Shown here one piece after another: positions 35,340-44,980 of a DNA stretch of 64,000 bases. This stretch comes from Ascidiella aspersa. Its lineage: Eukaryota. A program made the translations under genes and the position numbers. The DNA is taken from contig OZ004607.1 of assembly GCA_963924565.1 (NCBI GenBank), forward strand, positions 8,246,001-8,310,000. Reading direction: 5' to 3'. The stretch's first letter is position 1; every line of letters begins with the position of its first letter. Under the pieces are notes generated by a model. It was not told the origin of the DNA. It saw only the letters and a program-made list of their open reading frames with translations, and searched no databases.

Positions 35340-37892
35340 CTAGTGGACAACTCTGCCCCCTCTGCGATACACAACAAATGTACACAGCGCCATCATTATT
35401 CCTGCTAGGGCCATGCAGATCATTGTGTACCAAAATACAACAAGAAAAGTTCCGTAGTAATCAACAATGAGACCTGAAAAAGAACAAATACTAATTGGTG
35501 ACATTGTATTTTAGTCATATTAACAAACTTGCTTCATTTGCGGATTCTAATAATTGGCTGAAGGGCCCTGCTATAGACGTAGGTAAACAGTTAAAATTAT
35601 CGTAAAATTAAAGGCAATTAACTTCATATAGAGAAAGCATGCATTAAACTGTCATTAATAATTCAAGCAAAAAGCACACGCTTAAACACCAAGGGATGGG
35701 GGCACCACAGAAATTTTCTAAATATTTCGAGTCGTTCAGGCGACTCAGACCTCAAAAGTGGCACGGTTAAAATAAACTTTTGCCTATTTTTTCTCAAGTA
35801 TTATCTTAATTCTCTCTGACTATTAGTTTAAATTAATTTATAATTTAAATTGTGAGGCGTATTGTGTTTATATTCTGAATGACACATAGAGGGACAAAAT
35901 TTACCAAAGTATTAAGTGCTAAGGACCTCTAAATGGCATGGTCAGGCCCTACCGACCCTGAAGGGTTTTCTGAAAATGGAAAGCAAAGACAAATTAAAGT
36001 TATCTTACCGGATAATATGCCACTTGCGAAAACAGCAACGCCTCCGCATGCGAAGTACAAACCGATGGAGAGTGTCATAATTTTAGGCTCAACGAACACA
36101 GAAATAGCTGTGATGGATAATGTTGCCATTGATCCAAATGTGCCGCCATAAAGCAGGGCGTAAATGATCAGTTCGGGAAATTGACGGCCCAGGATTGCAA
36201 TGATCTGCACAGTGGAGCACGAGAATATCAACAAGGTAACAAGTCGGAGAATGTGTTTCTTTAAGTACTTGAATTTGGATAGAACAGCACCTGCCGAGAT
36301 ACACCCCAGAAAGTCGCCAAATGATATTACCGACAGCAATGCAGTGCTGTGCCTGGAACTTATTCCACCCGTGAGCGTGTGTGGAACAATGTAAACGTTG
36401 GGCACGTACATTGATAAACCGATGCAAAAGTGAACCAGCAGTAAGCACATTCCCAGCCAGTAATTTTTCAGAAAGCTAGCGGCGCGATTTTTACCTTTGA
36501 TTGTTGTGCCAGATTTACTTTGGTTAGAAGAAAATTCTAACGTTTTGTCCTCATCTACTTCAGCTGACACGCTCTCATCTTTGCAAGGCGATATTGGGTG
36601 TATCAGTGCCCCGGCGCAGCAAGCGTTGAGGTTTACAGCCGCCAATATAAGAAAGGCACCTCTCCAGTTGTACGAGTCCAACAAATACTGGTTGAGATAC
36701 GGGTAAGCCGTCCCTAAAAGAGTGTACCCGGACAGAGCAATTCCGTTGGCTAGGGGTTGCCTAGTTGAGAAGTAAAGAGAAGTTTGTGATAAGGAACAAA
36801 CTGTGATGATTCCGTACCCAACACCTGAAGCAACAATACGGGGTTAAATGCACACATATAAATTATTTTTGTTTAATTCCGATATAATTCAAAGTTTATA
36901 GTACCAACTAACACAAAAAATGTTACGTCCTATTATTGTACGACAATTGTTTCATATAAGTAGTGGGTTCGAGTCACTGACCTGTAATCACAGCTCCAAT
37001 GTACATAAGTACCATCACCGGCGAAAATGCACAGATAATTAGCCCAGAAGATCCTATAACTCCTCCAAGCATTGTCATTTGTCTTGCATCCATCCATCTC
37101 GACAGGATGTGGGGAACAACTCCTGAAATACGATTTCAAAGCAAAACGTTGTAAAAATACGTTTCAAGCGCACACAACAATTTCGTTCTTCTTAAATCAG
37201 TTTAAAGCATTTAATCTAAACATCTCTTGTCAGTGTACTGGCGTACGTCCAAAATCTAAACTTTCAATGATTTAGTGCTGAAAAGCGTTTTTTATATATC
37301 AATTTCTCCCGAATTGTGTTCTCCAGTATTTTCAACATTTTTTTTATATGGCGCTAATTTATTTTCAAAGCCGCAATATCAGGGATTGCGGATATATTCT
37401 AATGCTTCTCAATCACAGCTAATGGCACGTTTTAACAAATGGCTCAAAACTATTAACAAATGGCTCAAAACTTTTAACAAATGGCTCAAAATGGCTCAAG
37501 GCTCAAAGGTAAAAAAAACTGACACCAAAAGGACATTGGTTCATACACGAAACTGGTCTTACATTGAAAGGAAATATAATATAAACAATTCACTGTCGTA
37601 ACATGGTGATAAGAGTGACCTGATACAGTCTGACCACCGACCTGACATAGGTAGGACACTGACCTGACACGGTTAGGACACTGACGAAAAGCGACATGAA
37701 CCAGGATGTGGAGGCATTACTTGCCCCAAACTCGTTCTTTATGTCGATGAAGAAGACACCAAAACTTTTAGTGGAACCAAAGGCTATCCCTCCGCAGAAA
37801 AACGCCGATAGGGCGACAACCCAACCCCAGCCACCATTTGGGGGCTCTTTGTGAACGGCAATTCCGTTCAAAGTCCGAATTTCGAAGGACAT
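35340..37892 (-). CDS. SLC16/monocarboxylate transporter family MFS protein, paralog A (~439 aa)
   Basis: Exons 37664-37892, 36982-37122, 36009-36824, 35340-35473 (1320 nt incl. TAG). MCT signatures PPNGGWGWVV, YFSTRQPLANGIA and YNWRGAFLILAAVNLN; multiple hydrophobic segments. Confidence 0.9.
37431..37507. repeat. 21-bp tandem repeat
   Basis: TTAACAAATGGCTCAAAACT(A/T) x3 plus partial GGCTCAA copies. Confidence 0.85.
37598..37685 (-). repeat. 22-nt tandem array spanning the exon-1 donor of MCT paralog A
   Basis: GTCAGTGTCCTAACCGTGTCAG|GTCAGTGTCCTACCTATGTCAG GTCGGTGGTCAGACTGTATCAG GTCAC... Confidence 0.82.
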
Positions 37893-38477: not shown

Positions 38478-39136
38478 CGCATCATGTAAAACAAGATTCC
38501 TTATAAATCGACAAGTAACAATTCGTGCGATTACAAACTCGCACCAACGCTCATTGGTGCAAGAGCGCGCGATAGCTTATCGGCATTAGAACGTTTTTAC
38601 GTTCATGGTGCTGGCGCGTGAATGGATGTTCCACGACTCAAGAAAACCTCGCCTGTGGTAATCGGTTTCCTTCGTCAAGACCTGAGCTGCAGAAAAGTTT
38701 ATGCTGTGCTTGTGGGTAGTTGCATGGCTTGCCAACGCTGATTTCTTGGCATCCTCCTTGCCCACATCCCTTTCGTGCTCCTTCCGGCGCGTATTTAAAC
38801 TTCTACCCGTCTCCCCGATGTAAATTTCGTCACACTCGCCGCACGGTATAGCATACACCACACCCCTTGTCGCAGTTGCATCAACCGGGTCTTTTGGGTG
38901 CGACAGCATCTGACGTAGGGTGTTAATTGGTTTTACCCCAACCGATACACCGAAATCGGTCAACACGACGCATAACATCAGTTAACTTTGGTATGTAAGG
39001 TAAAGTGACGAAGGCATGTTCTTTGTACTGGATCTGCTTCCGCGAAACCTTTTTAGGGTCACGAAGAATCCAGTCCGGGTATAGCCATTTAACCGCAGGG
39101 CATCATGTACCCTGCGCAATTCGGTTTGAAGCATCC
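38415..39136 (-). mobile_element. 5'-truncated, frameshifted Penelope-like retroelement (RT C-terminal linker, GIY-YIG endonuclease, pLTR remnant)
   Basis: GVVYAIPCGECDEIYIGETGRSLNTRRKEH..SALASH..FLES in ORF 38586-38978; upstream frameshifted LRLNGY/PDWI and FVTLPYIPKL; hammerhead core downstream. Confidence 0.9.
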
Positions 39137-42034: not shown

Positions 42035-44855
42035 TTACTTCACTATTTTTCCTCCTCTTTTTTGTAAAGCAAACGCGCACATGCCCATCAACATACCAGT
42101 CATCGCCATACAGATCAAAGTGTACCAAAATACGACGAGAAACGTTCCGAACCAGTCTACCAGAAGTCCTGCAATTTAAAAGNNNNNNNNNNNNNNNNNN
42201 NNNNNNNNNNNNNNNNNNNNNNNNNNNNNNNNNNNNNNNNNNNNNNNNNNNNNNNNNNNNNNNNNNNNNNNNNNNNNNNNNNNNNNNNNNNNNNNNNNNN
42301 NNNNNNNNNNNNNNNNNNNNNNNNNNNNNNNNNNNNNNNNNNNNNNNNNNNNNNNNNNNNNNNNNNNNNNNNNNNNNNNNNNNNNNNNNNNNNNNNNNNN
42401 NNNNNNNNNNNNNNNNNNNNNNNNNNNNNNNNNNNNNNNNNNNNNNNNNTAAAAATATAGAGGAGATGCCCTTACCAGATACTAAGCCACTGATAAACAA
42501 CGCCACACCGCCGGAAGTAAAGAACAGACCAAAGGCTAGGGGCATGATTCTGGGCTCCACCAGCTGAGAGATGGACGTTATAGATGAAGTGGTCACCGAC
42601 CCGAACGTACAGCCGTAAAGGGTCGAGTACACTGCCAGCTCCGGGGCCATAGTGCTGAGCAGGGGAATGATTTGTACGACGGAACAAACCAGAATCAGCG
42701 CAGCCACCAATGCTACGATGTGGTCGCTTAAGCTCTTGAACCTGGATATAACCACGCCAGACATGAGTCGTCCCAGAAAGTCACCGACGGATAGAAGAGA
42801 CAGCAGCATAGTGCTATTCGCTTTACTGATGTTGTTTGTAAGCGCGTGCGGGATAATGTAGATGTTCGGGACGTACATGGACAGACCCACACAGGTGTTG
42901 ACAAAGAGAAAGCAAAACCCGAGCCAGTACTTTTTCAAGAATTTTGTCGCTCCATTCGCGTCGTTATTTTTTTTACCGGACTTATCTTGAGGGTGTGTTT
43001 GTTGCGATGAACAATGAGCCTTTTGCTCTAACTTTTGTAAAGTATTCGAACCGTCCTCTAGATCTGCACAAGGCGATATAGGGTGCACCAAAGCACCGGC
43101 ACAGCAGGCGTTTAGGTTAACAGCCGCCAATATAAGGAAGGCACCTCTCCAGTTGTACGAGCCCAACAAATGCTGGTTGAGATAAGGGTAGAGCGAGCCA
43201 AGAGAGGTGGAGCCGCAAAGTGCGATTCCGTTTGCTAGCGGCTTCAAGGTGGAGAAGTAATACGATACTTGCGAAAGGGAACAAATTGACATAATCCCGT
43301 AACCAATACCTGCACACCAAAATAGACATGTAGACAAAGGAGAAAGTTTATTGTAGTGTTTTTATACAGCTAAACTTGAACGTTGGTGCTTTTCCAAGGA
43401 GGAAAGGCAATAGCGATACGCGCAGTTACTGTGTTTGCTATAGGCATTAAACAAAACAAGAGGAATTTGGAAATAAATTGTTGTATCGTGGGGAAAATAA
43501 ACAAGTGTGTCGCAGTGTGTGTCATCACCTTTTTAGTATTTGATTTAATACACTCGATGCATTACAGAACTAAAAAATAAATTTAAAAAAATGTTTTTAC
43601 ACCAAAATAAATTAATTCCGAGCACCCGGTTTCGAAATATAATATATAAAAAACAGGATGTCGTGATAGATAAAAGTTTAGAGGTTACGACACATGTGCA
43701 ATTACAGTGCTCTTCTAGTTTATTAGGATTGTCACTGTAAAATTTAGATGTTTTAATAGCCTACTGTACTGTTTTTTTTTATTTTTATTGGATTGGATTG
43801 CTTTTAAAAACCTGTAATAACGGATCCAAAGTACATGACAGCCATCACTGGTGAAATCGCACAGACAACGAGCCCAGTTGATCCGATAAGTCCTCCAATC
43901 ATTATAACCTGTCTGGCGTCCAGCCATCTTGACAGGATGTGGGGAAGAACACCTAAAAAACACAATTAAAGTAAGTAATACACTGACCTATTACTACTGT
44001 AATACACGCTTAAGAGGAAAACCGACATTGTATAGTTCGCATGGTGACGTGCTAAAGGAGTAAGTTTGACCTAACTGAATGAAAGCACTAAACTCATCCA
44101 ATTTTTTACTGACTTGACAGTATACAACATAAAGACGCTGTCTAGACATAAAGAGGATAGTGACGTAATATAGTGTTGACACTCACAATACACTGGTATG
44201 CCAATCTTCAGAGTAAAACCACTGCCTTGCCACAAAATGCTGACCAGACACAGCAAGGACACTACCTTGGCACAGTAAAAACACTGATTTGACACAAAGA
44301 TACCTACACATTCAAGACGCAATGACCTGACACTATTAGGACACTGATCTCACGACCTAATCACAATCACGACTTAAAACCATCGGGACAAAGACTTAGA
44401 GAAACTAATAGCTTGGCCACGAAAAAAGTTGACCATAAGCGTGTTGATACTAACCTGACACCAATAAGACACTGATCTAAACAGTTAAAATACTGACCTG
44501 GCGCAGCAAGGACCCTGACCTGACAAAATTAAGACACCGACCTGACGTAAAAAAAAGACGTAAAAAAAAATAGGATACTGACCTGGCATAGATAGGACAC
44601 TGACCTGACACGGTAAGGATACTGACCTGAAACAGTAATGACACTGACGAAGAGCGACATGAACCAGGATATGGACGCATTACTTGCACCAAACTCGTTT
44701 TTTATGTCAATGAAGAAGACACCAAAACTTTTTGTGGAACCAAAGGCTATCCCTCCGCACAAAAACGCCGATAGGGTGACAACCCAACCCCAGCCACCAT
44801 TTGGGGGCTTTTTGAGAATAACAGATCCATTAAGAGTTTTAATTTTAAGTCCCAT
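42035..44855 (-). CDS. SLC16/monocarboxylate transporter family MFS protein, paralog B (~445 aa)
   Basis: Exons 44627-44855, 43812-43952, 42476-43309, 42035-42168 (1338 nt incl. TAA). Same intron positions and phases as paralog A; PPNGGWGWVV, YNWRGAFLIL, GDFLGR. Confidence 0.9.
42183..42449. other. Assembly gap (N run) inside intron 3 of MCT paralog B
   Basis: Run of n bases. Confidence 0.99.
44455..44648 (-). repeat. 22-nt tandem array spanning the exon-1 donor of MCT paralog B
   Basis: About 8 units GTCAGTRTCCTnACnGTGTCAG, the first exonic; decayed units continue to ~43980. Confidence 0.88.
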
Positions 44856-44980
44856 TGTGTATTTGTGCCTATAGGGAAACAGGGTTTAGAAAGAAGAGAC
44901 TCTGTTGTGCACTTCGCGCCGCCATTGTTCAATAGAACAAGAAAACAGTCAGCCGAAAGCTAAAACATAATACGAATAAC

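Follow-up and report, generated by a model that had tools for sequence, protein, structure and literature searches.

Why does an intron begin with copy after copy of the end of the exon in front of it, each copy bringing a splice donor of its own? This question is raised by a gene in a stretch of 64,000 nucleotides of DNA from Ascidiella aspersa (contig OZ004607.1). The whole stretch is called the window below, and positions are counted from its first letter. It was found that two SLC16/MCT-like genes, paralogs A and B, lie in tandem on the minus strand of the window. The coding exons of paralog B begin at 44855 and give a spliced reading frame of 445 aa, while those of paralog A begin at 37892 and give 439 aa. 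The two genes share exon sizes of 229 nt, 141 nt and ~820-830 nt, followed by a short last coding exon, all exon limits being predictions from sequence and homology. In paralog B, coding exon 1 (44627..44855, 229 nt, ending in phase 1), intron 1 (43953..44626, 674 nt, phase 1) and exon 2 (43812..43952, 141 nt) follow one another on the minus strand. In paralog A, coding exon 1 (37664..37892, minus strand, 229 nt) is also followed by a phase-1 intron. The best PDB matches of exon 1 are MCT1, MCT10, MCT2 and MCT8, and exon 3 of the spliced frame matches MFS_1 (Pfam, E 1e-15). The host gene is classed by homology as an SLC16/MCT-like transporter, the MFS_1 domain and the MCT-type N-terminal motif both being present.

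Two further features of these genes were recorded. The intron-2 donor of paralog B (43811, minus strand) is a weak CAG/GTTTTT (the slash marks the junction), whereas paralog A has CAG/GTCAGT there. Just upstream of paralog A, an open frame of 131 aa lies at 38586-38981 on the minus strand; I take it to resemble a GIY-YIG endonuclease fragment of a retroelement.

A 22-nt array across the end of exon 1

The last 22 nt of exon 1 of paralog B (44627..44648, minus strand) are unit 0 of a tandem array that enters the intron. The first-pass annotation had described this unit, and its positions were confirmed. Unit 0 encodes VSVITVS and the first base of a split Gly codon. Its CAG end abuts the true exon-intron boundary, as set by the paralogs and a PDB alignment of the exon end, and the donor is reiterated within the intron. 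Since the unit begins with GTCAGT and ends with CAG, head-to-tail junctions rebuild a splice donor.

There are eight clear units (44648-44455), which start at 44648, 44626, 44604, 44582, 44541, 44519, 44497 and 44476. The period of 22 was confirmed by TRF, and the units are tandem and of minisatellite length. Units 1-7 are intronic (44455..44626, minus strand). They carry the true donor at 44626 and spare GT donors at 44604, 44582, 44541, 44519, 44497 and 44454, while the junction at 44476 is dead (TAG/AT). Unit 6 (start 44497) is 21 nt in length. Unit 3 (44542..44582, minus strand) is 41 nt in length, and its 13-nt T-rich internal duplication has produced the sole pyrimidine run before an internal CAG/GT (44541). 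The junctions match CAG/GTCRGT exactly in five of eight cases and CAG/GT in seven of eight. The earlier statement that most clear junctions recreate CAG/GTCRGT was therefore upheld, and all six donors then listed, from 44626 to 44497, are right. The extra donor at 44454 (CAG/GTTAGT) was absent from that list.

The six B units that were compared are 13-18/22 identical in pairs, and by this measure the B units are judged to be old and mixed. What lies beyond them? A unit matrix was built from nine clear units (six of B and three of A) and used to scan the distal intron. In the span 44454-43953 (minus strand), six units reached a score of at least 6, against 0.45 in 300 shuffles (p 0.003). Their best starts are 44348, 44288, 44266, 44186, 44164 and 43987, after which comes the true acceptor. 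The same scan of intron 2 of paralog B found no unit at a score of at least 6. Units resemble the consensus less the farther they lie from the exon (Spearman rho -0.53, p 0.02, 19 segments), and unit-like sequence extends to 35 nt from the acceptor. The picture of about eight clear units reaching 44455 and then decaying toward exon 2 thus agrees with that drawn in the first-pass annotation. The 674-nt intron is judged from these copies to be mostly repeat-derived. The annotation's suggestion of intron growth by tandem duplication of the AG/GT-bearing exon end therefore holds.

The unit was also considered as a dispersed repeat or transposon. This was rejected, as a DNA search of the genome matched only B and A (at least two matches). 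An exact double donor with a spacing of 22 was found in the genome only in A and B (at least four matches, none in the control).

Paralog A and the age of the intron

Paralog A has a 22-nt array at the same exon end as paralog B (37620..37685, minus strand), which the first-pass annotation did not mention. It consists of an exonic unit 0 and two clear intronic units, with decayed traces at 37619 and 37540. A blastn match between the paralogs (44598..44818 of B and 37635..37855 of A, minus strand; 90.5% over 221 nt) covers most of exon 1 and ends ~29 nt into the intron, inside the array. The four-fold differences between A and B number 4/25 in exon 1 codons 16-68, 8/19 in exon 2 and 68/96 in exons 3-4, and the difference in divergence between exon 1 codons 16-68 and exons 3-4 is significant (p 1e-6). 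It is likely that exon 1 and about two units became common to A and B via gene conversion that carried the front of the array, the matching segment being the likely conversion tract. Units 0-1 of A are identical to units 1-2 of B at 40/44 positions and to units 0-1 of B at 35/44. Either an intronic unit, which reads VSILTVS in B, would have become the exon end through a one-unit slip, or unit 0 of B would have diverged later.

Did the repeat create the intron? A protein search of the genome (308.6 Mb, 75 contigs) gave 17 matches, which are B, A and 15 other SLC16-like loci, the latter 25-47% identical to exon 1. In 12 of these 15 loci the corresponding codon, 13 residues beyond the Trp of helix 2, carries a phase-1 GT, mostly as GTAAGT, and in all 12 the donor is free of any repeat running across it. 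Eight of the 12 lie in one cluster, and the 12 together represent five separate genomic places. In the remaining three, L006 and L016 end the exon earlier and L015 looks broken. As a separate observation, loci L004-L012 and L015 (C2, ~8.26-8.32 Mb) form a tandem cluster of nine SLC16-like genes, one of them inverted and one with a stop in the first coding exon. The split codon aligns with residue 73 of human MCT1, where human SLC16A1 presumably has an intron as well; a literature search returned no confirmation of that intron position.

The first-pass annotation had offered intron gain by tandem duplication of an AG/GT proto-splice site as one reading of the array, with the exonic duplication itself creating the intron. 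The reach of unit-like sequence almost to the acceptor would fit, and the mechanism is real elsewhere, being defined in the excerpted text of PMC3443670. The likeness is that an AGGT-bearing exonic segment was duplicated in both cases. The difference from that mechanism as excerpted is that the position here is common to distant paralogs without an array, which means that the duplication enlarged an existing intron. Because 12 of the 15 other SLC16-like loci have the phase-1 donor and lack the array, intron gain was rejected and is extremely improbable; the alignment of the split codon with MCT1 residue 73 also speaks against it. The intron is likely to be much older than the repeat. The present donor is either the old one or a replacement at the same position by a copy of the exon's GTCAGT.

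Spare donors, a second allele and the rival readings

How strong are the spare donors, and what would their use cost? Against the U1 consensus, the true donor at 44626 matches at 10 of 11 positions. The spare donors at 44604, 44582, 44541, 44519, 44497 and 44454 match at 9, 10, 8, 8, 10 and 10 of 11, by which those at 44582, 44497 and 44454 equal the true donor. In the same order, their use would extend the exon by 22, 44, 85, 107, 129 and 172 nt. Five of the six extensions break the frame, and the one in frame carries a stop inside the array. The expected frame shift at the +22 and +44 donors, 22 being no multiple of three, was thus confirmed. A premature stop would follow use of any of the six, again as anticipated, the first stops lying at codons 195, 108, 216, 109, 109 and 109 of the 445-codon frame. 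Since all these stops lie well before the last junction and UPF1 was found in the genome, products of the spare donors are likely to be degraded. With early stops after all six proximal spare donors, their regular use would cost transporter.

Conservation within the units was compared between the nine junction bases and the 13 middle bases, leaving out unit 3 (with its insertion) and the six bases of the true donor (with their known constraint). In six proximal units, mismatches number 4/48 at junction bases and 21/78 at middle bases (p 0.012). When distinct variants are counted, the numbers are 4 and 14 (p 0.08). Five distal units have no such difference (12/45 and 18/65 mismatches), and all 11 units pooled give p 0.08. 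A neutral reading of the excess is that the first bases of each unit may have acted temporarily as the true donor, and were later pushed downstream; the rival reading is selection for spare donors.

The array also appears to vary in length. X1 is a DNA run (contigs), possibly from the source sample of the assembly and so not independent; the comparison covered 43830-44900 and comprised 21 records. One X1 contig, of depth 38, links 44467 with 44594 and so skips 126 nt (44468..44593), or about five units, units 2-6 summing to 128 nt. A single contig supports this joint; its shorter side is 30 letters long, and the reading covers the two sides but not the stretch between them. A reference-like X1 contig runs across the skipped span at depth 44 (depth being no measure of copy number). 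Another X1 contig, compared across 357 nt of the distal intron, shows 34 letter differences and 13 gaps, and it has ~100 nt in place of 62. The X1 contigs are read as a second allele that would have two rather than six proximal spare donors. By this single run, possibly of the source sample, array length differs between alleles, and the notion that unit number varies between alleles was borne out by the contig lacking about five units. As a side observation, the reference-like X1 contig ends at 44654. X1 unitigs presumably overlap by 30 letters; if so, there is a difference between the two alleles at about +3 from the true donor (~44624).

I consider the array to be a donor-reiterating ('mirage') minisatellite, a mutational by-product in which the first donor is used, with a probability of about 0.78. 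The last 22 bases of the exon would have been repeated head-to-tail into a pre-existing intron, the junctions rebuilding the donor as a by-product. The array may have grown when the GTCAGT common to the Val-Ser codons and the donor set off slippage or unequal crossover, and older copies would have been pushed downstream. Transfer between A and B may have come about through exon-1 gene conversion with a one-unit slip. The spliceosome would pick the first donor and the other donors would drift, while leaky spare-donor products would be removed by nonsense-mediated decay. On this analysis, the first donor is likely used and the spare donors are likely mostly silent. This choice of donor is proposed on the precedent of human and amphioxus genes, which mostly splice at the first one. 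Against a silent array stand the three spare donors that match the U1 consensus like the true one, and the precedents of IFI6 and CBS. Leaky, decay-coupled donor use, to which the slightly better-kept junction bases (p 0.01-0.08) point, is accordingly given a small share of the probability.

The first-pass annotation had proposed that the array might act as a copy-number rheostat. In such a rheostat, splicing at spare donors would commit a meaningful part of the transcripts to destruction, and alleles with six versus two spare donors would give different amounts of transporter. The early stop behind every spare donor, the presence of UPF1, the difference of about five units between alleles, the three donors as strong as the true one and the weak over-conservation of the junction bases all point that way, as does the use of two spare donors in IFI6 and CBS (PMC1557585, as excerpted). 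In the same excerpt, however, raising the spare donors of F7 to a consensus value of 91 did not bring them into use. Judging by where the joint lies, both alleles retain the nearest spare donor, the likeliest to be used, and the deletion therefore need not alter output. Counting shared variants once weakens the conservation signal, which is absent distally and would be explained by a short spell as the true donor. A rheostat is thus unlikely. Rather improbable, too, is a wider role of the array as a working part, in which selection would keep the spare donors near the exon, an allele-dependent share of transcripts (six versus two donors) would go to decay and the intronic units would be spare exon ends. 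They could be such ends because, when the array loses complete units at its front, the final seven codons are exchanged but frame and donor stay as they were; the exon end of paralog A may be the first intronic unit of B promoted by front-unit loss. If spare donors were selected and used, the repeat length would set the level at which the transporter is expressed, and the slip by one unit between A and B would mean that intronic repeat copies are promoted to coding sequence.

The junctions had also been likened to recursive (ratchet) splice sites, by which the intron would be removed stepwise at CAG/GT junctions, most plausibly once at 44541. The juxtaposition AG/GT is indeed common to both (PMC6110457, PMC10156609, as excerpted). 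Of the 11 internal YAG/GT sites, that at 44541, at a distance of 85 nt from the true donor, comes after a pyrimidine run; recursive splicing is also a minor route in human introns of <1 kb in the excerpt of PMC10156609. The filter Y5-N0-4-YAGGT taken from that source passes only this site among the 11, but it passes only two of six real acceptors of A and B, which makes it a weak test for these genes; length and the lack of fixation of the 44541 site weigh more. The spacing here is 22-44 nt in a 674-nt intron, whereas fly recursive segments average 9.1 kb (PMC6110457, as excerpted). The first two junctions would give steps of 22 or 44 nt, below the intron peaks of 47 and 60 nt of Oikopleura and Ciona (excerpt of PMC4122922). 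The vertebrate minimal-intron peak of 76 nt (excerpt of PMC9438311) forms no part of this argument. By length, a step of 85 nt to 44541 is the sole feasible one. That site arose as a by-product of the 13-nt slip; the second allele skips it and paralog A lacks it, and in not being fixed between alleles or paralogs it differs from the recursive sites in the excerpts of PMC6110457 and PMC10156609. Recursive splicing of this intron was therefore judged very unlikely, its occasional use keeping a small probability because short human introns can be spliced in this way as a minor route. Poison micro-exons of 22, 44 and 87 nt from the 44541 acceptor were tried and rejected: all bring early stops and depend on the site that the second allele skips.

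Other donor arrays and known systems

Is such an array peculiar to the two paralogs? A genome-wide search for a triple CAG/GTNAGT at gaps of 10-35 nt gave 23 matches at five places, against one control match. Among the four places besides B, two follow Pfam-matched exons (copine and PH), one follows a likely exon and one has no clear exon. The copine gene has donor arrays in two consecutive introns (L046:1-1222 and 1483-1610, C7), one of 34 nt x 3.7 and, one intron upstream, one of 62 nt with at least 19.7 copies. In L025 (minus strand, ~1430-1600, C1), four identical 43-nt donor copies form a young array after the PH-domain exon, whose Pfam match (E 7e-4) is below the cut-off. In L031 (minus strand, C4), an array of 31 nt x 7.3 with CAG/GTGAGT follows a short exon without a Pfam match, which is probably the second of its gene and comes behind a signal-peptide-like exon. 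In L032 (1320-2655, C6), an array of 29 nt x 43 with CAG/GTCAGT has no clear exon in front. Triple AGGTAAGT arrays gave seven matches at three places, with two control matches, and none sits at a clear coding exon, which argues against the simple picture that every donor array sits at an exon. The short-period arrays at exon ends carry GTCAGT, GTTAGT or GTGAGT. Together with the absence of triple AGGTAAGT arrays from clear exons, this could be a sign of selection against repeats of the strongest donor (GTAAGT), although only a handful of places is involved and GTAAGC does occur in the 62-nt array of the copine gene.

The splice-donor array belongs to a kind of repeat known from human and lancelet genes. 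A literature search on ascidian splice-donor minisatellites found no ascidian case and only human F7, and the locus described here extends the known repeat class to an ascidian, and thus a tunicate. The genome also has one GH6-domain match above the Pfam cut-off, a feature typical of tunicates. General support for the view that repeat length can alter splicing comes from the excerpt of PMC10078293.

The closest relatives are the amphioxus 'mirages' of Adh3 and the globins BflGb6 and BflGb9 which, in the excerpted text of PMC3087553, leave splicing undisturbed and occur in haplotypes of 6 versus 3 units. Intron gain was already proposed for them there. In both cases, an invertebrate chordate has tandem copies that span the exon-intron boundary, many but not all copies keep AG/GT, unit number varies by haplotype, and degenerate repeats lie deeper in the introns. 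The present case differs from those described in that excerpt in being from a tunicate, in having a unit that is readable as wholly exonic (22 nt), in the greater age of its units by their pairwise likeness, and in being common to two tandem paralogs via a likely conversion tract. In amphioxus, splicing itself was tested.

In human genes, as excerpted in PMC1557585, only the first donor is used at the 37-bp VNTR of F7 intron 7, and the same holds for LMNB2 and PDGF; in IFI6 (6-16) and CBS intron 13, two spare donors are used as well. The F7 repeat resembles the present one in that its first monomer spans the exon-intron boundary, its donor is reiterated and its copy number is polymorphic. The spare donors of F7 are identical copies of a middling donor in that account, whereas those here differ from one another and three match U1 like the true one. 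Moreover, the unit here, at 22 nt, is not divisible by three. Between them, the two alleles and the two paralogs vary in how many strong spare donors they carry, spaced at 22 nt and breaking the frame, and they offer a natural test of first-donor choice.
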